A DNA stretch of 64,000 bases from Leptonemataceae bacterium (GTDB lineage: Bacteria > Spirochaetota > Leptospiria > Leptospirales > Leptonemataceae), in assembly GCA_965227295.1 (NCBI GenBank), contig OZ245742.1:5120001-5184000 (forward strand), given 5' to 3'. Positions within the stretch are counted from its first letter, which is position 1. Each line of letters starts with the position of its first letter. The notes under the pieces are model-generated. The model was not told the DNA's origin, made no database searches, and worked only from the letters and a program-made list of their open reading frames with translations. A program made the position numbers and the translations under genes. This document shows positions 22,632 through 60,462 of this stretch, one piece after another.

Positions 22632-22681
22632 CACGCCCCCGAAGTCCCGCCCCGCGATTGGAGCGGGACTTCGGGGGCGTG
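22632..22681. terminator. 19-bp perfect hairpin whose right arm merges into repeat array 1
   Basis: CACGCCCCCGAAGTCCCGC-N12-GCGGGACTTCGGGGGCGTG, 7 bp after the stop. Confidence 0.6.
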
Positions 22682-23370
22682 TGCGAACTACCCGGGCGTT
22701 TCCGGTAGTTCAAGAGCTGTGGTTCGTTGCGTTTACCGTGAGACACACAAGATAAGTTGCGCAATCGTAAAGGGGTTGATTTGGCTACGGCTCGCAGGAG
22801 TTGTGGATTTTCGTTTTGTTAAGATTGTCCGCCTCGACCCGGACGTCGGTTTGTAACTCAGCTACCGTAGTGTTTCTTACGAAGAAGACGCCGTTCCGGT
22901 CCGCCTTACCACGTTCCCCGACATGAACTCCGCGCGTCAGTTGGAACCAGCCGTACCCACAAAAGGCTTAATTTACGTTGGCCGCCACTTACACCACGAT
23001 TCGGGGCGTGTGCGAACGAATAAAACGTTTCCGGTAGTTCAAGAGCTGTGGTTCGTGGCGTTTGCCGTGAGACACACAAGATAAGTTGCGCAATCGTAAA
23101 GGGGTTGATTTGGCTACGGCTCGCAGGAGTTGTGGATTTTCGTTTTGTTAAGATTGTCCGCCTCGACCCGGACGCTGGTTGTGCGGTTCGGATATCGCAG
23201 CGTTTCTTACGAAGAAGACGCCGTTCCGGTCCGCCTTACCACGTTCCCCGGCATAACCTCCGCTCGTGAGCTGGAACCAGCCGTACCCACAAAAGGCTTA
23301 ATTTACGTTGGCCGCCACTTACACCACGATTCGGGGCGGACTCGAATGAAAAAACGTTTCCGGTAGTTCA
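22670..23370 (+). repeat. Array 1 of the ~330-bp repeat family (about 2.1 units)
   Basis: CCGGTAGTTC at 22702, 23031, 23360 (period 329). Confidence 0.95.
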
Positions 23371-23386
23371 CAGAACGCGCCTTTGT

Positions 23387-23974
23387 TCATAATCGAAAGT
23401 TCAATCGCAAACGAAACGTGACCTGGTTCTTGCCGACCTGCGCCGGTATTTCCGGGAACGGGGCGGCGCTGTGAACCGCGCGTAAGGCCGCATCGTTCAG
23501 TCCGTCGTGCGGACTCGCACCGACCAGGGCGGCCGATTGCAACACTCCGGATCCGTCAATCATCACCTGCACCGTAACGACACCCTGCTTGCCCGCGTTC
23601 TTCTCACGCGGCGGATAACGTTTCTTGCGCGCCACCATGGCCCGCACACGCGCCAGGTACTTTTCCAGCTCGGACTCGGCCTCCGCCGTGCCGGCGGCAT
23701 CGCTGCTGCCGGACGTCGGCCTGTCCGGATGCGCCTCGCTGTCTCCGATCGCGGCAGACGCGGGCGGCGGCGAGTCTGCCTGCAGGCGCAACTTCACGGA
23801 CGGCAGAATTTCCAGGCTGTCCTTCCGCTGCGAGGCCGACCCGCCGAAGTCCGTGAGCGCTAACATACACACAACGGATATTAAGAGCAGGATCGGATAA
23901 AATCCCCGGCCGTCCTGGGCCGCGGCCACAACCGCGAACCATCGGTGATTCGCCGACTCAACGCCTTGCTTCAT
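23387..23974 (-). CDS. tonB: Energy transducer TonB
   Basis: N-terminal TM helix; RYP...G.QG.V.V and L..AAL.AV....PF C-terminal domain. Confidence 0.88.
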   Translation of the reverse strand: MKQGVESANHRWFAVVAAAQDGRGFYPILLLISVVCMLALTDFGGSASQRKDSLEILPSVKLRLQADSPPPASAAIGDSEAHPDRPTSGSSDAAGTAEAESELEKYLARVRAMVARKKRYPPREKNAGKQGVVTVQVMIDGSGVLQSAALVGASPHDGLNDAALRAVHSAAPFPEIPAQVGKNQVTFRLRLNFRL

Positions 23975-24359
23975 GTTCAATGTTCACCGTCGTCGCGCCG
24001 GCCTGGCGGGCCTCGTCCATCACCCGTACAAAATAACGAAACGGGGTCGCGCCGTCCGCGCGCAACAGGACGTCCGTGCGGTTCTTCGCTTCGATGGCCG
24101 CCTTGAGCGCTCCGGGTAGATCATCCGGCGCCACGGAGCCGCCGTCGAGAAAGACGCCGCCGCTCGCGTCGATGGATACGACCACCCCCGAACGATCGGC
24201 GCGATCCGCGGTCTTCGCCTCGGGCAGTTCCAGTTCCACCACCGGCTTTAGAAAACGCGAGCTGATCATAAAAAAGATCAACAGCAGAAAGACAATGTCC
24301 ACCAACGGCGCGATGTCGATGATCGAGCCCCGCCGTTCCCGCTGCGCGAAGCCCTGCAT
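23958..24359 (-). CDS. exbD: ExbD/TolR protein
   Basis: IAPLVDIVFLLLIFFM; LRADG. Confidence 0.92.
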   Translation of the reverse strand: MQGFAQRERRGSIIDIAPLVDIVFLLLIFFMISSRFLKPVVELELPEAKTADRADRSGVVVSIDASGGVFLDGGSVAPDDLPGALKAAIEAKNRTDVLLRADGATPFRYFVRVMDEARQAGATTVNIEHEARR

Positions 24360-25066: not shown

Positions 25067-25133
25067 TCTGTGCTGTTTTATTCCTTTTTTTCTTGTCGAA
25101 TGCAGAGTTGTCAGAGATATGTCACACCATACA

Positions 25134-25724: not shown

Positions 25725-25764
25725 TTTTAAAACCATACCACAAATAGTTAACAGGAGAAACTTA

Positions 25765-26442: not shown

Positions 26443-26445
26443 AGC

Positions 26446-27678: not shown

Positions 27679-27704
27679 TCGCGACCTTCTATGCCGCGGC
27701 CTGG

Positions 27705-28320: not shown

Positions 28321-28322
28321 GG

Positions 28323-28949
28323 ATGCCGGACTTACAGAACGAAGCCAAATGGTTACATTTGTTTACGAACCCACGGCGCTTCTTTCGACATCTCGAAAAA
28401 TTCCGGAAGCAGAGTGCCATGATATTGCTGGCGATTCTGTTGGTGGGAATGGGCGAAAGCCTCGATCGCATGTCCGATGCGAAAGCCGATGATTTTCCAT
28501 TTCCCGAAATGATCGACAATTGGGCCTACTTCTGGTTGGGAATCGGCGGCATGGGTCTCTTGAACGGTGCGGTGGATTGGCTTATCGGCGGCTGGTTTTT
28601 TCATATGCGCGTGCGTTGGTCCGGTGACCTGCATCGCGATAAAACCGAGGCGCGGCTGATCTACATCTTCACGTCGATGATCATCGCACTACCGACTCTG
28701 GCCATCGGTTTGGTCGAGACCCTCGTGTTCGAAAGCCATCGCGAGACGCGGACAATGGATAAGCTTGTGTGGTGGATGCCCATGTGGGGGCTGGTACTGG
28801 TCTCAATGTTTTACTCGATCTATGCAAGCTACCAGGGGGTGCTGGTTCGCTTTCAGGTGGATCCCGAACAGGCCCGACGCTGGTTTCTCATCTTACCCGG
28901 CATGTTATATGGGCTCTCGTTACTGTTGATCCTGTCCGTTATTTTTTAA
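28323..28949 (+). CDS. Yip1-like membrane protein, paralog 1
   Basis: WLHLFTNPRRFF; about 5 TM helices; clear similarity to the next gene. Confidence 0.7.
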   Translation: MPDLQNEAKWLHLFTNPRRFFRHLEKFRKQSAMILLAILLVGMGESLDRMSDAKADDFPFPEMIDNWAYFWLGIGGMGLLNGAVDWLIGGWFFHMRVRWSGDLHRDKTEARLIYIFTSMIIALPTLAIGLVETLVFESHRETRTMDKLVWWMPMWGLVLVSMFYSIYASYQGVLVRFQVDPEQARRWFLILPGMLYGLSLLLILSVIF

Positions 28950-29006
28950 CTAAAACTCGACTGCCGGAACTGCTTGCAACTTGACCCCGCGCATTTAATC
29001 AAGCGC

Positions 29007-29708
29007 ATGCCCGAAGAACCACAGTCGCCCAATCCCTACGCTGCGCCGGAAGTGCCGACGCATGTCGCCGTGAACGAGGAGAATTATCCGGACGCGGAGT
29101 GGATGCATCTCATCACCAACCCGCGGCGATTCTTTCAGCATCTCAAGAAGTTTCGGCATCAGAACGGTGTCGTCCTGGTCTTCATCTGGGTCGTGGGCAT
29201 GGCCGGTGTCATCGATCGGCTTTCGGCTCAGACCGCCCGGGGGCGCAGCTTCGATTTTATGATGGATGATTGGGGCGCGTTCTGGTTGGCCGTGAGCGTC
29301 GGCGGTATCGTCGCCGGCGCGGTGGACTGGCTCATCGGCGGGTTCTTGTTTCACATTCGCGTCTCCTGGGCCGGCGATCCGCAGCGCGACAAAACCGACG
29401 CGCGTCTTATTTACATCTTCACCTCGGCGTTGATCGCCGTGCCGACGCTTGCGCTGACCGCCCTGGAAACGGCGACCTATGCAAGCTATCGCGAGTCCTT
29501 CGACTTCGAAGACATCGATGCGATGTATTTGTTGTACCTGTTCGTCTTCGCCGGTATGTTCTATTCACTTTATGTTAGCTACAAGGGTGTGATGGAACGA
29601 TTTCAGGTGAATCCGCGCCTCACGGCGTTGTGGTTTCTGATTCTACCGGGCCTGCTGTACGGAGGTGTGGCCGTTGCCACATTCGCCGTGGCCCTGACGA
29701 TGATGTAA
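29007..29708 (+). CDS. Yip1-like membrane protein, paralog 2
   Basis: NPYAAP, WMHLITNPRRFF; about 5 TM helices. Confidence 0.75.
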   Translation: MPEEPQSPNPYAAPEVPTHVAVNEENYPDAEWMHLITNPRRFFQHLKKFRHQNGVVLVFIWVVGMAGVIDRLSAQTARGRSFDFMMDDWGAFWLAVSVGGIVAGAVDWLIGGFLFHIRVSWAGDPQRDKTDARLIYIFTSALIAVPTLALTALETATYASYRESFDFEDIDAMYLLYLFVFAGMFYSLYVSYKGVMERFQVNPRLTALWFLILPGLLYGGVAVATFAVALTMM

Positions 29709-29732
29709 GCGACAGGGCGAACACGGAACCGA

Positions 29733-30797
29733 GACGAAGACGCCGTTCCGGTGCGCGCCCCACATATCCCCGGCATGACCTCCGACCGTAAGCTGGAACC
29801 AGCTGTACCCACAAAAGTGTTAATCCAAACTGGCCTTAACTTACATCACGATCCGGGGCGTGCTCGAACGAATAAAGATTTCCGGTAGTTCAAGAGCTGT
29901 GGTTCGCGGCGTTTGCCGGGATGAAAATGAAGTAAGTCGCAGTATAGTGAAGGGGATCTTCTGGCTACGGCTGAGCGGGAGTTGTGGTGATTCGTTTTGT
30001 TAAGATTGTCCGCCTCGACCCGGACGTCGATTTGTAACTCAGCTACCGTAGTGTTTCTTGCGAAGAAGACGCCGTTCCGGTGCGCCTTACCACATTCCCC
30101 GGCATGACCTCCGCTCGTTAGCTGGAACCAGCCGTACCCATAAAAGTGTAAATCCAAACTGGCCGCAACGTACACCACGATTCGGGGCGTGTTCGAATGC
30201 ATAAAAAGTTCCCGGTAGTCCAGGAGCTTTGGTTCGCGGCGTTTGCCGTAAGACACAGCAGGTAAGTTGCGCAATGGTTAAGGGTTTGATTTGGCTACGG
30301 CTCGCAGGAGTTGTGGACTTTCGTTTTGTTAAGAATGCTGCATTCGACCCGGACGTTGGTTTGCGACTGCTTTACCGCAGCGTTTCTTCCGACGAAGACG
30401 CCGTTCCAGTGCGCGCCCCACATATCCCCGGCATGACCTCCGTGGGTGGGGAACAACTGCCGCGGCCACGACAAGCGTGGCCTTGCCCCTGGAACCAGCC
30501 GTACCCATAAGAGGATTAATTTACGTTGGCCGCCACTTACACCACGATTCGGGGCGTGTGCGAATTACCCGAGCGTTTCCGGTAGTTCAAGAGCTGTGGT
30601 TCGCGGCGTTTGCCGTGAGACACACAAGGTAAATTGCTCAATGGTGAGGGGCTTGATTCGGCTACGGCTCGCAGGAGTTGTGGATTTTCGTTTTGCAAAG
30701 ACAGTCCGCCAGTGGGGAACCAACTGCCGCGGCCCCAACAAGCGGGGCCTTGCCGACACCGGACGTTGGTCTGTGACTCTGCTATCATAGCGTTTCC
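29733..30797 (+). repeat. Array 2 of the ~330-bp repeat family (about 3 units, two nested hairpin inserts)
   Basis: CCGGTAG at 29882, 30212, 30579 (periods 330 and 367). Confidence 0.95.
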
Positions 30798-30881
30798 CGC
30801 AGCGAGTTTGCGGCTCACAACTGAGTCCGAACGGCCCAACATCGGCGTTGACAGTTTTGCAGATCCGAGCAGAAATTTACC

Positions 30882-31684
30882 ATGCGCCTGAAAGTGGAAC
30901 CGATTGAGATCGATCCAAACGATCCGTTCGAAAAGGACGCTCTGGAACGCAAGAAAAGCGCCGAAATTCTTACCACCTTTGTTCAATCTCTCGATACCAG
31001 CGCCGTACTTGCGATCGACTCGCCGATAGTTAGTGAAGCGCCTGGTGCCGGCCGCGATTAAAGTTGGATCCGCAGGCATCATTGATCTAAATGACAGGGA
31101 TCTTGAAAAGGTGCTGGAAAAAGCCGTCGGTGAAATGGGAGCTGCTTACGCAGAAGAACTCTTCAAAAATTATGAGGAGTCAAAGAAGGCGTTTACACAA
31201 TTCAGGGAATCCCTGGCGAAGTTCGTTCAGGAATTGCAGGGAGATGCCAGGAATGCGGCCCCCTCGTATTCTTCATCGATGAACTGGATCGCTGTCGGCC
31301 GAACTATGCCGCGATTCATCGATTTTGAGTACAGGTTGCATCCGGGGAATCGCATGAACTTCATGACGTTTCTCATGGCACGATACGACCTCGATCGCTA
31401 CATCGGTGAAGACCGAGCCGAAGTTCATACGGGATGCCGTGCAAGGACTCGGTCTCCGATCCAACCTCTGGACGAAAGCAGCCCGTCCGGTATTCGAGCC
31501 CGCCGAACGAAAAGAACTGATCGCTCAACTGTACAAAACCATTGAGTTCGCCGCCCGCTTCACGGACAACAGGAGCACACAGCAGGCCACGGAGAACGAT
31601 TCCACTTTTGAATCACCGTACGCCGGTTATGGCCGCCCCGCCTGGCCGGGTGATATTCCGCCGCAAGACGGCGGTTTACTCTAA
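30882..31684 (+). pseudogene. KAP-family P-loop NTPase remnant
   Basis: MRLKVEPIEIDPNDPFEKDALER...VLAIDSP breaks just before the expected Walker A; PLVFFIDELDRCRPNYA (Walker B) out of frame near 31260; RFIDFEYRL follows directly. Confidence 0.8.
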
Positions 31685-35728: not shown

Positions 35729-36070
35729 ATGGACCTGCATGCATACCGGCTCCCCGAAGCAACGGGGGCCTTTCGAGTCATCGAGGAAGGCGGGCGCTCT
35801 TACATTCTGGTACGGGACGCACAGGGGCGACCGCGCTGTTTTTTGAACCAGTGTCGCCACCGCGGTGCGCGCCTGGAAAACCGGGAGTCCGGAGTCACCC
35901 GGGTGTTCGTCTGCCCGTATCATGCCTGGAGCTACGATACGAACGGGACGTTGCGCAATCTGCCGTACAAAGAATGCTTTACCGAACTCGACTTCACGGA
36001 GTTGAACCTGATCGAGACCGCGGACTTCGCCGAAAGAGAAGCTCCGGCGTCGGCGAAGGAGCCCGCATGA
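35729..36070 (+). CDS. Stand-alone Rieske [2Fe-2S] domain protein
   Basis: NQCRHRG and CPYHAWSY. Confidence 0.85.
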   Translation: MDLHAYRLPEATGAFRVIEEGGRSYILVRDAQGRPRCFLNQCRHRGARLENRESGVTRVFVCPYHAWSYDTNGTLRNLPYKECFTELDFTELNLIETADFAEREAPASAKEPA

Positions 36071-37032
36071 AGTTCTTCGAAGAAGACCGCGCCCTGGAGT
36101 TTTGCCGCTCCCCACATCGTCCGGAGCTGCCGCCGTCGGCTCGTTTCGATGTCCGCCGTTACGTCGACGCGAGTCGATTCGAACGGGAACGCCGGCGCGT
36201 CTTCGCGCATCACCCCGTGATGGCCCTGCACGCCTCCGAACTTCCCGTCGATGGTGTCGTAGAAACGGCGGTCAGCGGACAGGACGTCCGACTGCGGCGC
36301 GTGGCGGAGTCGCCCGGGGTCGAGGCCCGGAACGCAGACGGGCAACGGATCGCGGCGCTGATCCGCTATGGTTTCGTATGGCTGTACGCCGGCGAACTTG
36401 ACGACGCCACGATCGATGCGCACCTGGGCGAACTGCTCACCACGGATTTACGCGCCGCCGGCACGGAAACATTGCGGGTTTTCGCAGTAACTTCTACTGA
36501 TTGGAACTTTAACTGGAAGCTGGCCGTTGAAGCCGCTCTCGAAAGTTATCACTTTCGCATCGCCCATGCAAAGACCATCGGCGGGGCCTTCGACGATCAA
36601 TCCGCCTGCCTCAGTCAGAGCCGACTGCACCACCGCGCCGTGATCCCGCGCAACGGAGTCTCCGCAAAAAACAAACGCCTGCGGGACCGGGCCTTCGTAA
36701 CGTATAACGTTTTCCCGAACTCCCTGTTTTTCGTAAACCGGCGCCACTGCGACTGGCTGCGCGTGATTCCTCTGTCCGTGAATCGCAGCCGTTTGTCCAT
36801 CGCCACCCTGGTCCCGGCAAGCGTGCCGGACACCCCGCGGGCCCGCGAGTATTTCCGGAGCAATCATGAATTTACGTGCGAGATCGTACGGGAGGACTCG
36901 GCGATCAATCTGTCCCAGCAAAAAAACTTCGCGGCCAACCCGGAGATACCGGTCTATTTCGGCGGCCTCGAGGGCGGCCTCACGACCTTCAATCGATGCA
37001 TCGACGCCATGCTTGAGCTCAGAACGCCTTAA
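36067..37032 (+). CDS. Ring-hydroxylating oxygenase alpha-subunit catalytic domain lacking Rieske ligands
   Basis: RFERERRRVF, NWKLAVE, ESYHFRIAH, IVRED; GGAG RBS and ATGA overlap. Confidence 0.8.
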   Translation: MKFFEEDRALEFCRSPHRPELPPSARFDVRRYVDASRFERERRRVFAHHPVMALHASELPVDGVVETAVSGQDVRLRRVAESPGVEARNADGQRIAALIRYGFVWLYAGELDDATIDAHLGELLTTDLRAAGTETLRVFAVTSTDWNFNWKLAVEAALESYHFRIAHAKTIGGAFDDQSACLSQSRLHHRAVIPRNGVSAKNKRLRDRAFVTYNVFPNSLFFVNRRHCDWLRVIPLSVNRSRLSIATLVPASVPDTPRAREYFRSNHEFTCEIVREDSAINLSQQKNFAANPEIPVYFGGLEGGLTTFNRCIDAMLELRTP

Positions 37033-37927
37033 GATTCGCGAAAACGTTCTTAATTTTTGCAAGCAGGCGTTCCGGCGCGCGCAACCGGCGGTTCGTGCGA
37101 AAGATCACCGCGAGACGTTCGATGCGTTCGGTTTCTTCCAGGGCCGCTTCGCTTAATGTCAGGCGAACGTCACTTTGCCGCTGAAGCACGCCGACGCCCT
37201 CCTCCCGGGGCACCGCCCGGCCGAGCTCCGCCGCGTAACGCAGATACGGTTCGTAGCCGCGCTGTTGTTTCGCGTAGGCGATGCGACGATCACAGCGGCA
37301 GGGATTCTTCGCGTTCATGAGGCCGCAATGATCCTCCAGAAAACTCCCCAGTCGCTGCCGGGCCCGCGCGAGTCGCTGGCGATAGGCGTCGGCCGTGATG
37401 CCGAGCACCTCCGCGGCCTCGGGCCCTTTCATGGCGAAGACCTCGCCGAGCAAAAAGGCCATACGCCCCTCACGATCCAGGCAGGCCAGCATCGCATGGG
37501 TGCACGCGGCCTTCACGTTCTCCGCGAGATCGTTCAGTTCCTCACCGTCTTCGAGGGCCAGCAGCGCCGGGTCCTCACTGCCCGCCCGCAGTTCACCGGC
37601 GATGTCCTCGAAGGAAACGCCGGCACGCTCAAAGCGAGTGCGCCGGGTCTTCTTTGCGTCGATGAGATAGTTCACCGCGATGCGATGCGCCCAGGTGGAA
37701 AACGCGCTCTTGAACTCGAACTGATTCAGATGCAACACGATCTTCAGTAAGATTTCCTGCGTCGCATCCTCGGCATCTTCCGGATGCCACAGAAACTTTT
37801 GCGCGAGATTGTAGACGCGCTCCTGGATCGAAGCGACGATGCTTTCGAGGGCCTCCAGGTCGCCGCGATGCAACGCGCGGTCGATCCAGTCGGCGTAAGT
37901 TTCGTTGGATGGTTCTTTAAGATTCAT
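37019..37927 (-). CDS. ECF sigma factor with a Cys-containing C-terminal extension
   Basis: DAEDATQE, FSTWAHRIA, region 4 EAAEVLGI..RQRLARAR, then HCGLMNAKNPCRC. Confidence 0.88.
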   Translation of the reverse strand: MNLKEPSNETYADWIDRALHRGDLEALESIVASIQERVYNLAQKFLWHPEDAEDATQEILLKIVLHLNQFEFKSAFSTWAHRIAVNYLIDAKKTRRTRFERAGVSFEDIAGELRAGSEDPALLALEDGEELNDLAENVKAACTHAMLACLDREGRMAFLLGEVFAMKGPEAAEVLGITADAYRQRLARARQRLGSFLEDHCGLMNAKNPCRCDRRIAYAKQQRGYEPYLRYAAELGRAVPREEGVGVLQRQSDVRLTLSEAALEETERIERLAVIFRTNRRLRAPERLLAKIKNVFANLKAF

Positions 37928-37956
37928 CTCAGCGTGCAACCACCGGGGCGCAGACT

Positions 37957-38337
37957 TCAGTCTTTCTTCCCGGCGAGTAACGTCAACACCAGCGCCACGA
38001 GGGCCGGACCGCCCTGGGTAAACAGGATCGAAAACTTGGCCGTGGCCCCGCCGACGATACCGGCGACAATCACACAGAGCAAGAAAAACATCGTGTTCTT
38101 GTATGCGTGGGCGCGATCCGCAATGAAATACAGGGCCCAGAATAGCCCGGCCGCCAGGAATCCGTTGTAGAGGCCCTGATTGAACGCGAGGGTCGCGGAA
38201 ATCGCGGCCTGCTCGGCGGTCATTTTAAAGATTTTCAGACCCCACTCCGGCGATTCCCACAGGAACATTTCCAGGATCATAATAAATACGTGCTCCACGG
38301 CGACCAGGGTCGCGAAGACTTTTGCTGCGATTTTCAT
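37957..38337 (-). CDS. DUF1304 family membrane protein
   Basis: EH.FIMILEMF.W and LAFNQGLYNGFLAAGL. Confidence 0.85.
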   Translation of the reverse strand: MKIAAKVFATLVAVEHVFIMILEMFLWESPEWGLKIFKMTAEQAAISATLAFNQGLYNGFLAAGLFWALYFIADRAHAYKNTMFFLLCVIVAGIVGGATAKFSILFTQGGPALVALVLTLLAGKKD

Positions 38338-38365
38338 AGCTATACTTCCGTTCAGTTTTAACGGA

Positions 38366-38395
38366 TTAGACCGGGGCCGACCGGCGACTGTGACA
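38366..38395 (-). promoter_or_regulatory. ECF-type promoter for the DUF1304-sigma operon
   Basis: Minus strand TGTCACA-N17-GTCTAA, about 30 bp before the ATG. Confidence 0.6.
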
Positions 38396-38457
38396 GGCTA
38401 CGGAGAAAAAAGTACGAACCGCTCGCCGCCCGGTCCGGCCCGGGTTTTCCTGTCCCC

Positions 38458-39378
38458 ATGACCCTGACCCAGCTCCGCTACGTCGTCGCCGTGGACCGCT
38501 ACGGCAGTTTTGCCGGCGCCGCGAGGCAATGCCTCGTAACCCAGCCGACGCTGTCGCTGCAGATCCAGAAGTTTGAGCAGGAGATCGGACAGGAGATCTT
38601 CGATCGCCGCAAGAATCCGGTAACGACGACCGGCTACGGCCGCAGGATCGTGGACCAGGCGAAGGCCGTCCTGCGCGAGGCGGACAAAATCTCGGAGATG
38701 TTCGTCGAACAAGACGAGGAGCCGTCGGGGGAAATCTCCATCGGCATGATTCCGACGATCTCTTCGTACCTCATGCCGCATCTTTACAAGAACTTAAGTA
38801 AACGGTACAAGAAGTTAGAGTTTCGCATCTACGAACTGCCCACCACACAGATCATCGACCAAATTGAAAAAGAAGAGCTGGAACTGGGTGTCCTGGCCAC
38901 GCCGCTGCACATGAAACCCTTCGTCGAAACGCCGCTCTACTACGAACCCTTCGTGGCCTATTTCCCGAAGAACTACAAGGGCAAGCGTGAAAAGCTTACG
39001 TTTGAGAACATCGAGCAGACCGGCCAGGAGTTGATCCTGCTCGGGGAAGAACACTGCTTTCGCAACCAATCGTTACAGGTTTGCGGTCGCGCCGCCGCCG
39101 GCAAACTGGAATGCGGTTCTCTGGACACCATCAAGAAGATGGTGGACCTCGGCGCCGGCATGACGCTCCTGCCGCTGCTTTCCCTCGGCAAGGCCGAGAT
39201 GAATCGTTCCGGTCGTTTCGCCGAACCGCAGCCGGCGCGGGAAGTGAGCCTCATTTATAAAAAGGGTTTTTACAAAAAGAAAGTCCTCTCCGCCGTGCGG
39301 GACGTGATCCTCGAAGCGGTACCGGAAGAGCTGCGCCGCAAAGAAGGACGGCGTCTGATCGGAATCGACGTGGTGTAA
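38458..39378 (+). CDS. oxyR: OxyR-type LysR regulator
   Basis: LysR HTH; EHCFRNQSLQVC Cys pair; upstream of ahpCF. Confidence 0.88.
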   Translation: MTLTQLRYVVAVDRYGSFAGAARQCLVTQPTLSLQIQKFEQEIGQEIFDRRKNPVTTTGYGRRIVDQAKAVLREADKISEMFVEQDEEPSGEISIGMIPTISSYLMPHLYKNLSKRYKKLEFRIYELPTTQIIDQIEKEELELGVLATPLHMKPFVETPLYYEPFVAYFPKNYKGKREKLTFENIEQTGQELILLGEEHCFRNQSLQVCGRAAAGKLECGSLDTIKKMVDLGAGMTLLPLLSLGKAEMNRSGRFAEPQPAREVSLIYKKGFYKKKVLSAVRDVILEAVPEELRRKEGRRLIGIDVV

Positions 39379-39386
39379 AGGCCGCA

Positions 39387-39945
39387 TCGACCCGGACGAT
39401 GGGTTGCGCTCAGCTATCGTAGCGTTTCCTACGACGAAGACGCCGTTCCGGTCCGCCTTACCCCGGTCCCCGACATGACCTCCGTTCGTCAGCTGGAACC
39501 AGTTGTGACCAAAAAAGGCTTAATACACACGGACCGCAACTTACACCACGATTCGGGACGTTTACGAACAACCTGAGCGTTGCCGGTAGTTCAAGAGCTG
39601 CGGTTCGCAACTGGCGTGAGAAATATGAAGTTAGTTGCGGAATTGTGAAGGGGTTTTTATGGCTACGGCGAAGCGGGAGTTGTGGTATGTCGTTTTGGTA
39701 CGAATGCTGCGTTCGACCCGGACGTTGGTGTGTCGGAAAACGGGGATAAGTCATAGCGTTTCCTACGACGAAGACGCCGTTCCGGTCCGCCTTACCCCGG
39801 TTCCCGACATGACCTCCGTTCGTCAGCTGGAACCAGTTGTGACCAAAAAAGGATTAATACACACTGACCGCAACTTACACCACGATTCGGGGCATACACC
39901 GACAACCCGAACGTTTCCGGTAGTTCCAGAGCCGGGGTTCGCAGC
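39387..39945 (+). repeat. Array 3 of the ~330-bp repeat family (about 1.7 units)
   Basis: CCGGTAG at 39583 and 39917 (period 334). Confidence 0.93.
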
Positions 39946-39959
39946 GGCCCGGCCAGCCT

Positions 39960-39995
39960 ATAGCCTGCGACAATGTCATCATTGACACTATTTAT
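39960..39995 (+). promoter_or_regulatory. OxyR-like binding site upstream of ahpC
   Basis: ATAG-N7-CAAT-N6-ATTG-N7-TTAT. Confidence 0.55.
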
Positions 39996-40088
39996 TTGCG
40001 CAATGCACCAGAATCGGTTATGTTATGCACCATAGTCGGGAGGAAAACTCCCGCGGAACGAACTGATAATTACAAGGAGTATCAGCAA

Positions 40089-40652
40089 ATGTCAATGATC
40101 AACAAAACTATTCCGGACTTCAAGGTAGAGGCGTACCACGACGGCGAATTTCGCACCATCAGCAGTGCCGACGTCAAAGGCAAATGGTCCGTCTTTTTCT
40201 TTTATCCGGCGGACTTTACGTTCGTTTGCCCCACGGAACTGGGCGACCTGGCCGATTTCTATCCGCAACTGCGGGCGGCCGGCGTGGAAGTCTACAGCGT
40301 TTCCACCGATACGCACTTCGTCCACAAGGCCTGGCACGAAGCCAGTGAAACCATCCGCAAGATCGAATTCCCGATGCTCGGCGATCCCGCCGGCGTTCTC
40401 GCCCGCGGCTTCGACGTGATGATCGAAGAAGACGGTCTTGCTCTGCGCGGCACCTTCGTGGCCGATCCGGAAGGCGTGATCAAGATCGCCGAGATCAACG
40501 ATCTGGGCATCGGTCGCTCCGCCGAAGAGCTCGTCCGCAAGGTCAAAGCGGCTCAGTACGTCGCCGAACACGACGGCGAAGTCTGCCCGGCCAAATGGCA
40601 GCCGGGGGAAGCCACGCTGAAGCCCTCCCTCGATCTCGTGGGCAAAATCTGA
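40089..40652 (+). CDS. ahpC: Alkyl hydroperoxide reductase C
   Basis: FYPADFTFVCPTE, GEVCPAKW; AAGGAG RBS. Confidence 0.97.
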   Translation: MSMINKTIPDFKVEAYHDGEFRTISSADVKGKWSVFFFYPADFTFVCPTELGDLADFYPQLRAAGVEVYSVSTDTHFVHKAWHEASETIRKIEFPMLGDPAGVLARGFDVMIEEDGLALRGTFVADPEGVIKIAEINDLGIGRSAEELVRKVKAAQYVAEHDGEVCPAKWQPGEATLKPSLDLVGKI

Positions 40653-40818
40653 ATCAGCCTCGCCCCACCCGCTCCGGCCCGCGCACAAAGCGGGCCTCCG
40701 GGATGGGGCGAAACTGACAGTTATGAATCCATCGCGGCTGCCCCGGCTTCGGGGCGTCGCATCATGCAATCATATTCTATTTATTTAACACGTTAATTAT
40801 TTAAACCGGAGATACGTC

Positions 40819-42432
40819 ATGTTAGACAATGCCATCAAGAAACAACTCACCGAGTACTTTCAAAAACTCGAGGTCCCGGTCGTGCTGCGCACGTTTGCGG
40901 GAGAGCACGAGAAAAGATCCGAACTGCTCTCCATGCTGAACGGCATGGCCGAGCTGAGCGACAAACTCTCCGTCACCGAGGTGCCGGATGACGATGCCTC
41001 GCCGATTTCTTTCGATGTCCTGCGTGACGGCGACGCCACCGGTATCCGCTTCAGCGGCATCCCGGGCGGCCATGAGTTTTCCTCGCTCATCCTCGCCATT
41101 CTCCAGGCCGGCGGCTCGCCGCTGAAGCTGGACGCCGGCGTGCAATCCTTCGCGCGCAAGATCGGCGAACCGCTACGATTTCAAACCGTCGTCTCGCTGT
41201 CCTGCCACAACTGCCCGGACGTCGTCCAGGCACTCAACGGCCTGTCGCTGTTGAACGACGGCATCTCCCACGAGATGATCGACGGCGCCCTCTTTCCACA
41301 GTTCGTGGAAGAACATAACGTGCAGGGTGTGCCCGCGGTCTTTCTGAACGGCAAACCCTTCGCGAACGGCAAGATCGACGCCGGCCAGATCATTCAAAAG
41401 CTCATCGATCTCGCTCCGCAACAGAAGGATACTGCCGATGACGGCGTCGGTGGCGAACCGGAACTCTACGATGTTGCGGTGGTCGGCGGCGGGCCGGGCG
41501 GCGTCGCCTCGGCGGTCTACAGCGCCCGCAAGGGTCTGCGCGTTGCGGTGATCGCGGATCGCCTGGGCGGCCAGGTCAAAGATACGATGGATATCGAAAA
41601 TCTCATCGCCCTGCCGAAGACCACCGGCCCGCAGCTCAGCGGCACTCTGTCCGAACTGCTGCAAAGTTACAGCGTGGAGGTCAAAGAACACCTGCGCGTA
41701 TCGCGGATCGAAAACGGGAAGAGCGAAGTTTCTCCTAAAGTAATCACACTGAATACTAACGAGAAGCTGCTCGCAAAGACCGTGATCCTGGCCACCGGCG
41801 CGAAGTGGCGTGAACTGAACGTGCCCGGCGAAAAAGAGTATCTGGGCAACGGCGTGGCCTACTGTCCGCACTGCGACGGCCCGTTCTTTAAGGGCAAAGA
41901 CGTGGCGGTCATCGGCGGCGGTAACTCCGGCGTCGAAGCGGCCCTGGACCTCGCCGGCATCGTAAAATCGGTGAAGGTGCTCGAGTTCGGTTCGCAAATG
42001 AACGCCGACCAGATCTTACTGGATCGTCTGGGGCGCACCGCGAACATCGAATCGTTCGTAAACGCACAGACCACCGAGGTCCTGGCCGACGGCAAAAAGG
42101 TGACGGGCCTGAAGTACACCGACCGCGAGTCCGGTGAAGAACGTGAAGTGGTCCTCGACGGCGTTTTTGTGCAGATCGGCCTGTTGCCGAACACGGCGTT
42201 CGTGAAGGACCTGGTGGAAACGAATCGTTTCGGTGAGATCATTGTGGATGATCGCTGCCGCACGAATGTGCCGGGCATTTTCGCCTGCGGTGATGCTACG
42301 ACGGTTCCGTACAAACAAATCGTCATCGCCATGGGCGAAGGCGCGAAGGCCTCACTAAGTGCGTTTGAGTATCTGCTGAAGCTGCCGGCGGAGACGCGGG
42401 AAGCCGAAGCGAAAGAGGCGGTGGTGGCTTAA
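40819..42432 (+). CDS. ahpF: Alkyl hydroperoxide reductase F
   Basis: CHNCPDVVQ, CPHCDGP, GGGNSG. Confidence 0.97.
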   Translation: MLDNAIKKQLTEYFQKLEVPVVLRTFAGEHEKRSELLSMLNGMAELSDKLSVTEVPDDDASPISFDVLRDGDATGIRFSGIPGGHEFSSLILAILQAGGSPLKLDAGVQSFARKIGEPLRFQTVVSLSCHNCPDVVQALNGLSLLNDGISHEMIDGALFPQFVEEHNVQGVPAVFLNGKPFANGKIDAGQIIQKLIDLAPQQKDTADDGVGGEPELYDVAVVGGGPGGVASAVYSARKGLRVAVIADRLGGQVKDTMDIENLIALPKTTGPQLSGTLSELLQSYSVEVKEHLRVSRIENGKSEVSPKVITLNTNEKLLAKTVILATGAKWRELNVPGEKEYLGNGVAYCPHCDGPFFKGKDVAVIGGGNSGVEAALDLAGIVKSVKVLEFGSQMNADQILLDRLGRTANIESFVNAQTTEVLADGKKVTGLKYTDRESGEEREVVLDGVFVQIGLLPNTAFVKDLVETNRFGEIIVDDRCRTNVPGIFACGDATTVPYKQIVIAMGEGAKASLSAFEYLLKLPAETREAEAKEAVVA

Positions 42433-42531
42433 TCTCATCGCAACAATCATTACCGGCGGCGGCGCCGTGGAGCGCTGCCGCCGGTCAGTTTTCTTGCTGA
42501 CAGATCCGGCCCCCTGTGCTCCAAAGCGCCT

Positions 42532-43611
42532 ATGATGTGCCGCCTCTTCATTTTTTTCATCTTCCACTCCCTTATCGTTGCAAGCCTGCAGGCGGATGTC
42601 CTGTTCCGGATTCGCCTGAACATCGTCGCAGGGGCAACGGTGGAGCGGCCCACACGAACGAACGCGGAGGCCTATCTTGCAAAGAGCTGCGGCATAAACT
42701 TCAATCAATGGAAAAAAACCGCCCGTTATCCGGAGAGAATCACCGCAAAATTGGACATGCGCCCGGAAAAAGCGGACATAATGTTTATGTACCTTTGCAT
42801 ACGGTTCATGCGGGCCAGTCAGTGGTGGACGAAGAATCTCGCCGAAAACGAATCGAAGACGGCTCGCCACGTAAACTGGTGCTTTCGTCGCGGCACGATA
42901 TTGCCTTCCGCAGGCACCTTCAACGATGCGTACAAAGACAAGAGCCATCATTATCGCAACAAGGTACTCGCCGAACCGGTCCTGATGGGAGAAGGTTCCG
43001 TTTCGTTTGGAGAGGAGCGCGACGTAAACGACTGGAGCATTACAGTGTTTCAAGCGAGCGACCTCGGCCGGGCCCGCGTCGGGAGAAAGTTTCGCGATAT
43101 AGGTGCGATTCTTTCGCAGGATTTGTATGCGGGGCTGGTGAAAGACACGTTCGTGAACTCCAGCCAGAAGTATTTGAAGCTCGAGCACGAACTCGGCCAC
43201 GTCCTTCAACTGGCAGACGGAGACGGCGGAATCATGAATGAAAAAGGACAGGTTCGGACGAAGTTCCCGGACAGCTTTCCACGCATCCTGGTCGACAAGC
43301 TCGACGCTTACTGGGGCAAGAACGTACTGTTCACCGAGGGCGTTGCGCCGGGCTGCGCCTGCTGCCGCGATCCGAGGAGCGAGGAACCGCCGTTCGTTCC
43401 CTACGAGGAACTATTGGAAGAACTCCGCATGCAACGACTGGAATCTTTGCCGGAAAGGATTCGCGTCATCAAAGAACAGCTTGAAAAAGAGGAACAAAAG
43501 ACCCGACGTGAGGCCCTGGAAAAAGAAAAAAACGCCGCCGAAGAACAACTCAAGCGACTCGAAGCACAACAAGAGGAGCAACGCGAGAAAGACTCACGCA
43601 CCGGAAAGTAA
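42532..43611 (+). CDS. Secreted hypothetical protein with an HExxH zinc-peptidase-like motif and a coiled-coil tail
   Basis: Signal peptide; HELGH..L.D; CACC; E/K/Q-rich C-terminus. Confidence 0.6.
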   Translation: MMCRLFIFFIFHSLIVASLQADVLFRIRLNIVAGATVERPTRTNAEAYLAKSCGINFNQWKKTARYPERITAKLDMRPEKADIMFMYLCIRFMRASQWWTKNLAENESKTARHVNWCFRRGTILPSAGTFNDAYKDKSHHYRNKVLAEPVLMGEGSVSFGEERDVNDWSITVFQASDLGRARVGRKFRDIGAILSQDLYAGLVKDTFVNSSQKYLKLEHELGHVLQLADGDGGIMNEKGQVRTKFPDSFPRILVDKLDAYWGKNVLFTEGVAPGCACCRDPRSEEPPFVPYEELLEELRMQRLESLPERIRVIKEQLEKEEQKTRREALEKEKNAAEEQLKRLEAQQEEQREKDSRTGK

Positions 43612-43613
43612 CC

Positions 43614-44603
43614 TCAAAACAAATACACCACCGCAATCGAGTACGCCTCATCGAACAGCCGGTACTCCCGCGGCTCCGGCGGCCGGCGGCCCTGTAAGAA
43701 GTACCACAGTTCCTCCACTTCCGTGTTCGGCCGGCGCCGAAACAGCGGATACCGGTAACCTGCGCTCACTAACATGTTGTCCGTGATACCGAACGAAACG
43801 CCCGCCTCCAGTTCCCGGTAAATCCGCGGCTCCTCCCCGGCGTTCGCGCGCTCCTGAATGACTCCGGCATAGGGCACACGATACGCGAAACCGCCGAAGA
43901 CAGTGAACGTTTCCGCAAAAGACGGCAGCGGTCGAAAGCCCAGGCGCGCCCGCCATTCGGTGACCTTCTCCAGTTCATGCGTCTCCCGCGTGACCGTGAG
44001 CGGCTCCGGCTCCCAGGGCAACGTCTCGATCTCCTGCAACTCCGTTGTGACTTCGGTTGATTCCTCCCGGGGCAGTTGCGAAAGCGGCCAGGTCCCGCCG
44101 GCACGCAGGGTGAACAGCCAGCGATCGCTCGCGAGGCCGAGCGTAAGTCCGGCGCCGCCGTCATAAAAGTTCTCGTCGACGAAAACGTCCCGATCCGAAC
44201 CCGCGGCGAAACCGAGGTCCGCGTCGGCCACCAGAAAGAACGTTTCCTGTTCGCCGAGTTTCGGCTGGGCGCGCAGGCCCAGGCGCGGCCGGCCGTAGCG
44301 TCCGGCATCCTCGCGATCCTTTTGCGCATAATAAACATACGGCACCTGAAAGTTAAGGCCGAGTGCGCCGTAGTCCTCGTCGTCGAGGACGTTCAGTTCA
44401 CCGGCCGCACTCACGGTCCAGATGTTCCGATTGTCCGGCTCGCCCTTGACGTAGTCCACGGAGAACAGGACCTGGGAGCGCGGACCGGGTGTGGTGTTCC
44501 CGAGCACCCGCGCCCGGGAGGCGTGCCCCGGATGGTGGGCATACAACGGCATCACCGCTAATGCAACAACAGCGAAGATTAGCCAGAGAATCGGTCGGCG
44601 CAT
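43614..44603 (-). CDS. Outer-membrane beta-barrel/transporter of the MbnPH locus
   Basis: Signal then HHPGH; amphipathic strands; C-terminal VVYLF. Confidence 0.65.
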   Translation of the reverse strand: MRRPILWLIFAVVALAVMPLYAHHPGHASRARVLGNTTPGPRSQVLFSVDYVKGEPDNRNIWTVSAAGELNVLDDEDYGALGLNFQVPYVYYAQKDREDAGRYGRPRLGLRAQPKLGEQETFFLVADADLGFAAGSDRDVFVDENFYDGGAGLTLGLASDRWLFTLRAGGTWPLSQLPREESTEVTTELQEIETLPWEPEPLTVTRETHELEKVTEWRARLGFRPLPSFAETFTVFGGFAYRVPYAGVIQERANAGEEPRIYRELEAGVSFGITDNMLVSAGYRYPLFRRRPNTEVEELWYFLQGRRPPEPREYRLFDEAYSIAVVYLF

Positions 44604-45436
44604 TAAAAAGAAAAACATTCGTGTTCCCTCATGATCGTGCCGCCGGGGATGTTCGCGGCGAAGGCGGCGCTGACGTCCGACTCCGCGGTGCCGCCGAGAT
44701 TCGCGAACAGCCGGGCGTAGTCGAAGTACAGGAGCATGGCCGTGCTGCTCACCGGCGAAACAGTCGCAGCGCAGCGCGGGGTGACTGCGAAGTCCGAGGC
44801 CACCGAATACAACGCCGTGAAACTCGCACCGCCGATCGTTCCGACAAACTGCATGCGGCGCACGTGCAGGACTACGCTCTGGACGCCGCCGGGCGGCAGG
44901 GCCAGAGTACCGCCGTCCGTACCGAAGTAGTACAGTTCCAGGGAATCCCGCCCGTTGCCGAAACTGCCCGCGGACAACGGCTGCACGAACCGGTCCCGGC
45001 CGGTCACGAAGATACTGACCCCCGCCGCCGGAGCGATGTCCTCCTCGTGACGCGAAACGGGCGCCATAAACTCACGCCCATCGAATGTTAACGCATCCGC
45101 CGCCGGCAGAATCGGCGCGGGGATGCCGGACGCTCCGGCGTAGACGTCGATCTTTTCCACATCCAACCAGGCACTGCTGAGTTGCACGGTGCCTTGATTC
45201 GAAGAGAAACTATCGATGGCATCCAGGCCGCCGTCACCGAAACGAAGCTGTACGTTCATGGCCCCGGTGCCGGCAACGCCCAGGACGTAGCTTAAAAGCG
45301 CTTCCTCATCACTTAAGGCGTCGCCCTGCGTGCCAAACGAACAAGCCCCGCACAGCAGAAGCACAAACAAAAGTCCGCAGCCCGTCCCAAAAACCCTCGA
45401 AACCCCGGCGCCGCGGAGTAAAAAATTCTTCTCCAT
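44603..45436 (-). CDS. Hypothetical lipoprotein
   Basis: LLCGAC lipobox; stop overlaps the next start (TAATG). Confidence 0.65.
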   Translation of the reverse strand: MEKNFLLRGAGVSRVFGTGCGLLFVLLLCGACSFGTQGDALSDEEALLSYVLGVAGTGAMNVQLRFGDGGLDAIDSFSSNQGTVQLSSAWLDVEKIDVYAGASGIPAPILPAADALTFDGREFMAPVSRHEEDIAPAAGVSIFVTGRDRFVQPLSAGSFGNGRDSLELYYFGTDGGTLALPPGGVQSVVLHVRRMQFVGTIGGASFTALYSVASDFAVTPRCAATVSPVSSTAMLLYFDYARLFANLGGTAESDVSAAFAANIPGGTIMREHECFSF

Positions 45437-52067: not shown

Positions 52068-52091
52068 CTGCTAACAAACATTGCCAGAAAG

Positions 52092-54035: not shown

Positions 54036-54163
54036 ACTGGATGGTGTCGCTGAGAAATGCGGAGCATCACATTGCAACCATCCCCCGCCTATCGCGAAAA
54101 CGCAATCAAGAAACACGGCGGCATCCCGCTTGACACAAGCACCACGACGCCGAACGTACCAAC

Positions 54164-54628: not shown

Positions 54629-54720
54629 ACCTTCCACAAACGAAATCGATCCGACAGCAGCATTGCACTAACATTCACCGAACTGGTGTTAGCAAAACCG
54701 TGGCCGCGCAGGCAGCGGCC

Positions 54721-55338: not shown

Positions 55339-55347
55339 CGTGAAACA

Positions 55348-56685: not shown

Positions 56686-56786
56686 AATTCCCGCGCCGGA
56701 GGCGGTGATCCTGGGTACCTTAAAACGAGCCGGACCCAGGCAAACAAAATTTTCTGGTCCCCCGCCCCGCCCCCAAAAAAGTGCTC

Positions 56787-57833: not shown

Positions 57834-58725
57834 TCCCGGGCTACTTTCGGACCTCTACAAACTCTTTAAACCGGGGCTCGGCGCGTCGATCCTGGTTACG
57901 ATCATCCCCGGTCTGCTGTTGGGCCCGGAACTGCCCGGCTGGTCGACGATCGCGTTTACCATGATCGGCACGTTCCTCGTGGCGATCTCCTCGTTCGCCT
58001 ACAATCAGATCATCGAAATCAAAACCGACGCCCTCATGGAGCGCACGCGGGATCGTCCACTGCCGTCCGGTCGCTGGCCGCTCTTCGCCGCGTACTTCAT
58101 GGGCTCTTCGATGCTCGGCCTCGGTCTCATCTTACTCGCCCTCAACGTCAACCCGCTCACCGCGGTCGTCGCCCTGGCTTCGTTCGTGCACTACGTCTTC
58201 ATATACACGGCGATCCTCAAGCGCGCAACGCCCTGGAATACGTTGATCGGCGGTTTGTCCGGCGCGGTGGGCCCGCTCATCGGCGAGGCGGCCGTGGCAA
58301 ACACGCTAACATTCGAAGGTTTTACGTTATTCCTGCTGCTCTTTCTCTGGCAGCCGCCGCACTTCTGGTGCCTGGGCATCAAGTACCGCGAACAGTACGC
58401 GGCCGCGGGCATTCGCATCCTGCCGGTAACGGACGGCGTGCAGACAACGTTGCGCTACATGATCGGCTACTGGATTGCGGTCTTGCTTTTGATCGTGCTG
58501 ATGTACGTGCCGGTGTTTCCGCCGCTCGCGATCGCCGGGCCGGCCTTCTTCGTGCCGGCCTTCGGCCTGGGACTCGTGGTACTCTACGCCATGATCAAAC
58601 TCCGCCGGGACTTTGCCGCGGGGGAGGACGCCCGGCCGCTGCGGGTCTTCTTTCTGACGATCCTGCACATGCTCGTCTGGCATCTGGCCATGACCGCGGA
58701 CCTGTACCTGCGACGCTGGTCCTGA
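57823..58725 (+). CDS. ctaB: Protoheme IX farnesyltransferase
   Basis: D.LMERTRDRPLPSG, YT..LKR.T, FLWQPPHF. Confidence 0.93.
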   Translation: MRTDPGLLSDLYKLFKPGLGASILVTIIPGLLLGPELPGWSTIAFTMIGTFLVAISSFAYNQIIEIKTDALMERTRDRPLPSGRWPLFAAYFMGSSMLGLGLILLALNVNPLTAVVALASFVHYVFIYTAILKRATPWNTLIGGLSGAVGPLIGEAAVANTLTFEGFTLFLLLFLWQPPHFWCLGIKYREQYAAAGIRILPVTDGVQTTLRYMIGYWIAVLLLIVLMYVPVFPPLAIAGPAFFVPAFGLGLVVLYAMIKLRRDFAAGEDARPLRVFFLTILHMLVWHLAMTADLYLRRWS

Positions 58726-58923
58726 TTCATGAGCACCCGGGTCGCGGCCTTTTTTGTCGGATCTTTGGGTTTTTCTTTTCCCTTTTCAGCAGCCTGCCTG
58801 TATATTGAACAAATCTTGAGAGCGGCCGCGCCGGATTTCGCCGTCTCACGGCCCTCGGACGCTGGAACGCTTCTTGCTGATGTAAACAGGGCAGAGCCCG
58901 ATTTTTTTCACTTTGATTGCATC

Positions 58924-59538
58924 ATGTTGATCTACTCGCAACCCTATCGTCGTAAAACCGAACGCCTGAACGTTACGCTCACCCGGGAAAAGGGCGGTTA
59001 CCTGCTCGTGGTGGACGCGTTGCGCAACGCCCCGGAGACCCTGTATCGCCTGGCGGCGGTGCTCTTCGTCCACGAATGGAACATCACCCACGCGGACATC
59101 TGCACCCTCGAGAACCTGGAGATCATCGACAAGTTCCTGGTGCGACCGGTAGACAACGAGATGGCCGTGGACGAACTCAAGTTCGAAAACATGATGTACG
59201 ACTTCGAGCAGTTGCTCTTCGAAAGCCCGTCCGTGTCCACGTATCTCAAAGAGCGCGAGGCCGAGCTCCACTTCGACGCCACCGGCGCCGGCCAGGTGGA
59301 GTTCTATCTCGACGCGAACCGCACGTACATCATGCTTTCCGGTTTCGACCGGCCGGGCCTGCTTTTATCGATCACCCAGGTCTTCGCGTTCATGGAGATC
59401 GACATCCTGGAAGCCCGCATCCACACGGCGCCCGGCGGCCAGGTCCGTAACTCCTTTTTGCTGAATCCTACGGACGGCCGGTTCAAGGATCCCCGCTTCC
59501 GCGAGCGGTTGAGCGACGGATTGCGGATGTTGCTGTAA
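58924..59538 (+). CDS. Tandem ACT-domain protein resembling the GlnD C-terminus
   Basis: NITHADI.T....IIDKF and DRPGLL..I..VF....IDILEARIHT. Confidence 0.7.
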   Translation: MLIYSQPYRRKTERLNVTLTREKGGYLLVVDALRNAPETLYRLAAVLFVHEWNITHADICTLENLEIIDKFLVRPVDNEMAVDELKFENMMYDFEQLLFESPSVSTYLKEREAELHFDATGAGQVEFYLDANRTYIMLSGFDRPGLLLSITQVFAFMEIDILEARIHTAPGGQVRNSFLLNPTDGRFKDPRFRERLSDGLRMLL

Positions 59539-60462
59539 TGTCGGGCACGCCCTGAATCGTGGTGTAAGTGCAGGCCAGTGTACATTAAGGCTTTTATGGG
59601 TACAGCTGGTTCCAGCTTACGGTCGGAGGTCATGCCGGGAATATGTGGGGCGCGCACCGGAACGGCGTCTTCGTCGCAAGAACCGCTGCGGTAGCTGAGT
59701 CGCAAACCGACGTCCGGGTCGAACGCAGCACTCTTTGCAAAACGAAAATCCACAACTCCCGCTTCGCCGTAGCCAAATCAACCCCTTCACCATAACGCAA
59801 CTTGCCTAATGTTTCTCACGGCAAACGACGCGAACCACAGTTCTTGAACTACCGAAAACTTTTCGGTAGTTCGCAGGCGCCCCGAATCGTGGTGTAAGTA
59901 ACGGCCAGTGTACATTAAGGCTTTTATGGGTACGGCTGGTTCCAGCTGACGAACGGAGGTTGTGCCGGGGAGCGTGGTAAGGCGGACCGGAACGGCGTCT
60001 TCGCTTTGGAAAAAACATCAAGCGAAGGCGCACCGGAACGGCGTCTTCGTCGTAAGAAACGTTCCGATCGCTGAGTCACAAACCGACGTCCGGTGTCGGC
60101 AAGGCCCCACTTGTTGGGGCCGCGGCAGTTGGTTCCCCACTGGCAGCACTCTTTGCAAAACGAAAATCCACAACTCCCGCTCAGCCGTAGCAAAAAAAGG
60201 CCTTTCACGTTGCGCAATTTACCTCATGTGTCTCACAGCAACAGTCACGAACCGCAGTCCTTGAATTACCGGAAACGCTCGGACAGTTTGCGCACGCCCC
60301 GAATCGTAAAGTAAGTGAAGGCCAGTGTACATTAAGCCTTTGATGGGTACAACTGGTTCCAGCTGACGCGCGGAGGTTATGCCGGGGAACGTGGTAAGGC
60401 GGACCGGAACGGCGTCTTCGTTTCGGAAAAAACATCAAGCGAAGGCGTAAGAAACGTGCGGA
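59539..60462 (-). repeat. Array 4 of the ~330-bp repeat family (about 2.5 units, inverted orientation, nested inserts)
   Basis: Reverse complements of the conserved blocks, e.g. GAATCGTGGTGTAAG, CTGGTTCCAG, CCGGAACGGCGTCTTCG. Confidence 0.95.

Follow-up and report, generated by a model that had tools for sequence, protein, structure and literature searches.

Four Repeat Arrays in the Window

The stretch of DNA analysed here (the window: 64,000 nucleotides, positions 5,120,001 to 5,184,000 of contig OZ245742.1, GenBank assembly GCA_965227295.1, from a Leptonemataceae bacterium; position 1 is its first letter) carries four intergenic tandem arrays of a ~330-bp repeat, which a preliminary description made from the sequence alone had singled out as an unrecognised family. 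The arrays lie where that description placed them, at remapped positions 22674–23370, ~29729–30800, ~39380–39947, and 59540–60462, and its period of ~330 bp and total of ~9 unit-equivalents are borne out by the spacing of the GAAGACGCCGTTCC box (330; 329 and 329; 334; and 330 bp, insert-free). All of the near-invariant blocks that it listed hold across the 67 full-length units found genome-wide; likewise, one end of each array lies 7–50 bp from a stop codon, and arrays 1 and 4 occupy convergent gaps. Each unit is laid out as module A (~1–135), a linker, module B (~165–305), and a second linker. Here we document a hierarchy that runs from a short core of conserved boxes through inverted doublets to arrays, with lineage-specific sites, recombination, and constraint on the boxes. 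The features of the four arrays are as follows.

22641..22672, + strand: hairpin with a short perfect stem, immediately 5′ of array 1 and akin to hairpin module C, an optional module (from sequence and the module C family)
22674..23370, + strand: array 1, linker-B-A-linker-B-A-linker, ~2.1 units; fills the convergent gap between a 218-aa open reading frame (ORF) and tonB
22784..22845, + strand: one instance of the three-box core (module B): GCTACGG - GAGTTGTGG - CGTTTTG - TCGACCCGGACG
22884..23015, + strand: example of module A, diverged inverted homologue of module B
29729..30800, + strand: array 2, three A-B units, 3′ of a Yip1-domain gene
30446..30487, + strand: insert D (hairpin) at the fixed site of module A, array 2
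30712..30754, + strand: insert D (hairpin) at the fixed site of module B, array 2
39380..39947, + strand: array 3, ~1.7 units, from the stop of a LysR-family (oxyR-like) gene to the conserved ahpC upstream region
59540..60462, − strand: array 4, ~2.4 units; fills the gap between two convergent genes, one with an ACT domain and one with DUF1835
60003–60048, − strand: duplicated A head of array 4, 46 bp
about 60098–60140, − strand: insert D of array 4

A Chromosome-Wide Family at Gene Ends

A genome-wide BLASTN search with one unit matched 114 loci in the single 5.94-Mb contig of the source genome (G000), and the core pattern read backwards, used as a specificity control, gave 0 matches; together, these results place the family far beyond chance. 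A profile search of the same genome returned 316 matches in 130 clusters, summing to 75 kb (i.e., 1.3% of the chromosome), and these clusters merge into 118 loci (5 of them <100 bp and weak) that hold 209 A modules, 186 B cores, and ~212 unit-equivalents. Mean identity among the 67 full-length units is 79.5% (range 69–94%). Convergent gaps contain 57 of the 118 loci vs. 795 of 4412 gene pairs (18%) genome-wide (p about 6e-14, with gene calls made within the analysis), and in co-directional gaps array orientation is indifferent to that of the upstream gene (27 vs. 23). Our literature searches, with most subscription papers outside their reach and no supplements, gave no description of the family in Leptospirales. 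The data support a repeat that is undescribed, non-coding, and non-autonomous, and in which recombination has a large part.

A Three-Box Core and Its Inverted Dimer

The unit is a diverged inverted dimer, i.e., two modules each built around a ~63-nt three-box core. In full, this core runs GCTACGG, a short gap, GAG(A/T)TG(C/T)GG, 27 nt (a segment that often holds CGTTTTG), and TCG(A/G)CCCGGACG; its short form is GCTACGG, TGYGG, TCGRCCCGGACG. The two halves are linked by a few ancestral-type copies (e.g., G000 776282–776589 and 1378565–1378856), whose arms are clear inverted repeats (A vs. reversed B, 0/1000 shuffles) that form hairpins as DNA (z −10 and −3 to −5); every such arm aligns to main A or main B (0/1000 shuffles). 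The preliminary description, which had presented a ~330-bp element, was right about the period but mistook it for the elementary unit and overlooked the inverted-dimer structure.

Insert D occupies two fixed sites and has the orientation of the array in all 27 of the unit copies that carry it, which are spread over many loci; 6 further matches lie elsewhere, and hairpin module C (~60 nt, with matched stem changes) has 51 matches, most of them within or beside arrays. Column conservation across the 67 full-length units has no helical periodicity. A separate GC-rich hairpin repeat family occurs at G000:C1:777740-777820 and about 200 other places, and insert D is present inside some of its members.

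Cores and Doublets in Related Species

Among 156 genomes of the order, the core pattern is present in exactly the three of the genus (i.e., G000 and two other species, G001 and G002, which are mutual sisters) and is absent from the remaining 153; in a species-level genome collection, the exact variant pattern occurs at 10 loci, in two assembled genomes only. A core model run on 150 further genomes from the phylum, with only 29 candidates per genome scored, found it in none of them; among 39 genomes from the family's other genera it gave two single weak matches (E 0.002 and 0.007). The core pattern had 0 matches in viral contigs and 0 in metagenome contigs, the 14 metagenome matches of a 21-nt A-box pattern were all without the rest of the unit, and plasmid and phage sequences held no match to the repeat.

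A sequence model places the core at 18 sites in G001 and 28 in G002, nearly all single, with one inverted doublet in each species, 3′ of orthologues of the same gene; that gene, which we take to be fliM-like, also carries an array in G000. We examined 44 of these loci, 29 with a usable flanking orthologue and 15 uninformative: the matching G000 gap is empty for 26 of the 29 and holds an array for 3, one of which rests on a 54% match and a possible paralogue. The spacers that the preliminary description had named for comparison are empty as well, in that the oxyR–ahpC gap of array 3 is without a core in G001 and G002 and the tonB gap of array 1 is ~23 bp and empty in G001.

G001 and G002 have cores in common at four orthologous gaps (five cores). 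Across these five, the boxes are identical at 112/113 positions, the box 2–box 3 spacers at 66/136, and the flanks at 101/250, and fourfold-degenerate sites of the two species match at 60–64%; the box 2–box 3 distance is 27–29 nt in all five orthologous pairs, and the box 1–box 2 interval accommodates insertions. The neutral expectation for retained cores is ~0.003 of 18 sites, and retention above it makes constraint or repair in place likely. In the doublet that both species have, the spacer types of the arms are switched between G001 and G002 while the middle is collinear, a pattern that suggests exchange between boxes. The same two species also hold a second intergenic module, ~170 bp, that often abuts the core (e.g., L027:2285-2500; L030, L034, L092-L105) and is absent from G000 by BLAST.

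Array Ends and Target Sites

Among the 113 loci that reach 100 bp, starts and ends depart strongly from a uniform distribution along the unit (chi-square, 30-nt bins, p < 1e-22). Of the 113 starts, 92 lie in two inter-module linker zones, set after inspection of the data and spanning half the unit, as do 100 of the ends; the most frequent exact start and the most frequent exact end each account for 7 of the 113. Array ends are ragged but modular rather than freely circularly permuted, and ends in linkers follow if an array of alternating inverted modules can begin or end at either module. Of the permuted ends in the preliminary description, varied entry and exit stand, but arbitrary phase does not, since the ends cluster in two zones. 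The lack of common terminal inverted repeats and target duplications extends from its four arrays to the 113 loci: no fixed termini were found, and direct repeats of at least 5 bp flank 6.2% of loci vs. 3.2 ± 1.6% in shuffled pairings, i.e., no duplication above background in a test whose power the ragged ends reduce. The fixed ends with terminal inverted repeats of a miniature inverted-repeat transposable element were not seen among these loci, and the multi-copy elements of G000, among which a cognate insertion sequence (IS) was sought, have different ends; nor was there the one fixed and one variable end of an IS91/Helitron-like element, as both ends fall in the two zones. Arrays contain 196 of the 202 core matches, in the expected orientation, and none of the remaining six was seen at the ends of multi-copy elements.

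Sequence Dynamics of the Copies

Linkage (r2) between variable columns falls from 0.30 (≤3 bp) to 0.05 (11–20 bp) and then 0.02, and four-gamete violation is 0.9 or more beyond 10 bp; alleles are thus reshuffled over 10–20 bp, which points to heavy gene conversion. Identity is 84% within arrays (27 pairs) vs. 79.5% between them (2184 pairs), and an array mate is the nearest neighbour of 21 of 37 units, with neighbouring units often just 74–80% identical. Exact repeats of at least 150 nt occur inside 12 of the 118 arrays and never between arrays, the top identity between units at different loci is 92.7%, and two arrays 39 kb apart have 718 bp in common at 90%, insert included. The pattern is consistent with early seeding, more recent duplication on the spot, and ongoing conversion throughout.

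Insertions at Cores and Neighbouring Genes

Cores attract insertions. In G000, an IS481-family copy and a tyrosine-recombinase island each split a core near box 1: the former (G000:C1:1034820-1035970) inserted at box 1 with an apparent 6-bp duplication and has at least five near-identical copies elsewhere, and the latter (12.7 kb, G000:C1:2989220-3001920) splits a B core, its joined ends forming an 11-6-11 inverted site. In G002, box 1 of one core is directly bordered by an IS3-like end. A paralogue of the island's integrase module lies at about G000 4225078. Two of four tyrosine recombinases adjoin arrays, and both were rejected as mobilisers, one for its resemblance to housekeeping XerC (read from sequence) and the other as part of an island that landed within a core.

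Among the genes of the window, two tandem Yip1-domain paralogues (28323–29708) are 72% identical over 194 nt, and an array lies 3′ of the second only. A truncated ATPase gene start (30843–31020) directly follows array 2; its intact paralogue (G000:C1:3617880-3619170), which matches it at 76% over 180 bp, promoter region included, also has a core just upstream and gives a weak QatA match, below cut-off. The DUF1835 gene adjoining array 4 had no match in the relatives with the query used. Elsewhere in the chromosome, an 11.9-kb segment is duplicated (G000:C1:750433-762310 and 5014969-5026846) and includes an ORF of about 4300 aa.

Origin and Spread of the Arrays

How intergenic repeats without an obvious transposase originate, spread, and persist is an open question, and the progression from single cores through inverted doublets to long arrays seems to be represented, stage by stage, across the three genomes of this genus. 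The reading that we favour, if by no means with assurance, is a non-autonomous repeat resembling a bacterial interspersed mosaic element (BIME), seeded by a box-reading enzyme now lost or unrecognised. Its starting point is the ~63-nt core, observed across the genus both singly and as tail-to-tail inverted doublets; the 330-bp unit is such a doublet plus two linkers, its arms since too diverged to pair. A trans-acting enzyme that recognised the boxes and nicked or recombined DNA, lost or unrecognisable today, may then have seeded cores or doublets at about 100 new gene-end gaps in the G000 lineage, where only gaps behind stop codons would have tolerated them. Thereafter, the seeded copies very probably grew through local tandem duplication and have been continually reshuffled as loci exchange short conversion tracts, the conserved boxes serving as anchors of homology. 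Ragged ends in the linkers would result from arrays that begin or end at either module and from erosion of their edges, and, given that the boxes are constrained in place, a putative DNA-binding protein probably still reads them.

Several observations weigh against this reading. Compared directly, the halves of the main consensus are not significantly alike (129 of 1000 shuffles score as high), and they do not fold (z −0.6), which puts today's units beyond the reach of any enzyme that reads hairpins. Copies at different loci are never near-identical, i.e., there is no sign of current spread. The relatives' cores were found via the box pattern, which inflates their box conservation, and, with G001 and G002 as sisters, gain vs. 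loss is argued by parsimony only. Nor is a mobilising gene visible, as had been remarked for the window: in the three genomes (each about 93% complete; the positive controls of the RAYT searches were detected), Y1 transposases including REP-associated tyrosine transposases (RAYTs; PF01797, NF047646), TnpB, and DUF559 proteins were each found in 0/3, resolvases were not found in G000, and the one IS110 and 10 reverse transcriptases of G000 lie 6–64 kb from arrays. The IS110 is a single copy, 9.5 kb from an array and present in 0/2 relatives. A Y2 transposase search gave 0 in G000, with its positive control likewise undetected, a crude motif scan turned up 0 HUH-like candidates, and GIY-YIG matches comprise a long protein common to all three genomes and a single small protein, 10 kb away from an array. 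HNH matches were obtained too, and no candidate mobiliser was linked to the family. The 10 reverse transcriptase genes fall into five types, and those inspected resemble group II intron proteins.

A rather unlikely alternative is that the host itself selected the sites, which spread without a dedicated enzyme: the boxes would bind a putative chromosome-organising or topoisomerase-type host protein, and recombination would loop out unit-length circles that re-enter at existing cores or microhomologies. Box retention in place at orthologous sites, the narrow box 2–box 3 distance beside a tolerant box 1–box 2 interval, the indifferent orientation, the lack of a mobiliser among those searched for, and the ancestral doublet site that underlies at least one array of G000 all agree with such an origin. 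Against it stand the 26 of 29 relative sites that are empty in G000 and the oxyR–ahpC and tonB gaps without cores in relatives, which leave most arrays without a demonstrable landing pad and would require essential sites to turn over fast; the lack of helical periodicity and the absence of the core from most of the order argue in the same direction. The origin that the preliminary description proposed for its permuted ends, one-step insertion of whole arrays from a circular or rolling-circle concatemer, we regard as quite improbable. It would accommodate the near-background target duplications (6% vs. 3.2 ± 1.6%), the lack of a fixed terminal base, the higher identity within arrays, and the 718 bp common to arrays 39 kb apart, and passages of one source present rolling-circle models for BIMEs (PMC3333891). 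It sits poorly with ends that cluster in two linkers, showing neither a circle-wide spread nor one fixed origin, with the divergence of neighbouring units, and with the lack of a Y1 enzyme in the genomes searched. From its broader proposal of non-autonomous spread through a circle, concatemer, or recombination, non-autonomy and recombination find support, but circular permutation of a single unit, as stated, does not.

That the modules act as RNA, whether a structured non-coding RNA or a gene-end transcription terminator, is highly improbable, even with a location behind stop codons. The plus strand of module B reaches a consensus-fold z of −2.1, and its box 1–box 2 followed by the T tract is terminator-like in 3/3 B modules of array 2 (terminator-like sites: 4 found vs. 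1.7 ± 1.6 expected); a weak terminator-like role of this module is possible. However, a search of Rfam matched no family (one chance-level match, E 0.41), no conserved fold emerged (single-unit z 0.5 and 1.0; structure conservation index 0.34 or less on both strands), orientation is unbiased, and the columns in strongest linkage form allele blocks of short range rather than base pairs; the folding energy of the core consensus is −0.84 kcal/mol. Effectively refuted is the notion of a repeated protein-coding segment in decay, or of an assembly artefact. The consensus spans a whole number of codons (330 bp = 110 codons) and one frame of some relative cores shows a Cys-like motif by eye, but unit lengths mod 3 are mixed (25/28/14), the synonymous fraction is 0.25–0.33 in all six frames, and there are 1.9–5.5 stops per unit. 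An artefact is very unlikely, given that copies differ by 6–31%, that homologous cores occur in two other assemblies, and that the contigs of one run, possibly of the source sample, hold 99% of the words sampled from 36000–45000 (array 3). A hammerhead-type retrozyme was rejected (Rfam gave no match), as was adenine-directed variation like that of a diversity-generating retroelement (A columns are no more variable than other columns). The arrays are not CRISPR-like, as previously held: their variable segments are reused alleles, and the 13 window proteins scanned include no Cas family.

A more far-reaching reading, to which we give a rather low probability, makes the three-box core the substrate of a so far unrecognised, hairpin-independent system for site-specific recombination or nicking, unrelated to RAYT, that would swap the 27-nt segments between cores, seed new sites, and build tandem arrays. 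The segment swapping is read from the opposite spacer types on the arms of the orthologous G001/G002 doublet, and such a system, if real, would be a second, double-strand route to a BIME-like architecture. If no dedicated enzyme exists, the family would instead be a clean case of repeat expansion through recombination. As the core departs from the hairpin-plus-GTAG rule yet keeps its boxes, it would make an exact bait for its protein; the familiar architecture and the uncultured organism restrict immediate impact.

Comparison With Known Repeat Systems

To judge from its architecture, the repeat works like a BIME or REPIN (a REP doublet) array, and yet it fails membership among repetitive extragenic palindromes (REPs). 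The contrast with REPs that the preliminary description drew from unit length was overstated, as the basic element is the ~63-nt core; given its single and doublet forms in the relatives, the hierarchy equals that of REP, REPIN, and BIME. As in these systems, the family is high-copy and extragenic with enrichment at gene 3′ ends and in convergent gaps (118 loci, 57 convergent), and inverted related elements with linkers recur in tandem, with doublets in G001 and G002. Passages of PMC3333891 and PMC3116915 describe the BIME-2 arrays of E. coli and the REPIN clusters of Pseudomonas, served by RAYT/TnpA-REP transposases. The repeat shares with them the progression from singlet through inverted heterodimer to tandem array, the alternation of inverted modules separated by two linkers, sites at gene ends and in convergent gaps, ragged ends, and a greater likeness of units within a locus than between loci. 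Like BIMEs, in the portion of PMC1525189 that bears on them, it serves as a target for other mobile elements.

The differences are equally specific. In systems with a RAYT the gene is flanked by repeats, whereas no RAYT was found in 3/3 genomes here; gene loss is known in REP/RAYT systems (PMC6006769, in part). The GTAG- and CGTC-tagged REP superfamilies and the terminal inverted repeats of the tyrosine transposases termed TIRYTs are, in passages of PMC3733652 that leave Leptospira unmentioned, 20–40 bp palindromes, whereas our core is longer and non-palindromic, with no Y1 gene in 3/3 genomes. In place of the 20–60 bp imperfect palindrome of a REP, the core consists of ~63 nt of spaced boxes with no conserved hairpin; in place of a GTAG/GTGG foot 5′ of the hairpin, its GTAG stands at the bottom-strand 3′ end with no conserved stem after it, and a GTGG start occurs only in optional insert D. 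Unlike in BIME-2 and REPIN, modules measure 135–165 bp with a period of 330 bp, and the main-family arms no longer pair.

Among longer intergenic repeats, BOX modules are co-oriented and NIMEs (neisserial intergenic mosaic elements) combine 20-bp repeats with variable cassettes; in neither case is the repeat a tandem inverted dimer. By description rather than by sequence, the present family can nonetheless be likened to pneumococcal BOX (67–637 bp), neisserial NIME, and Bacillus bcr5 (310 bp), which the relevant passages of PMC3184786 present as long modular intergenic repeats: all have an uncertain mobiliser, extend over hundreds of bp, and are modular and lineage-specific.

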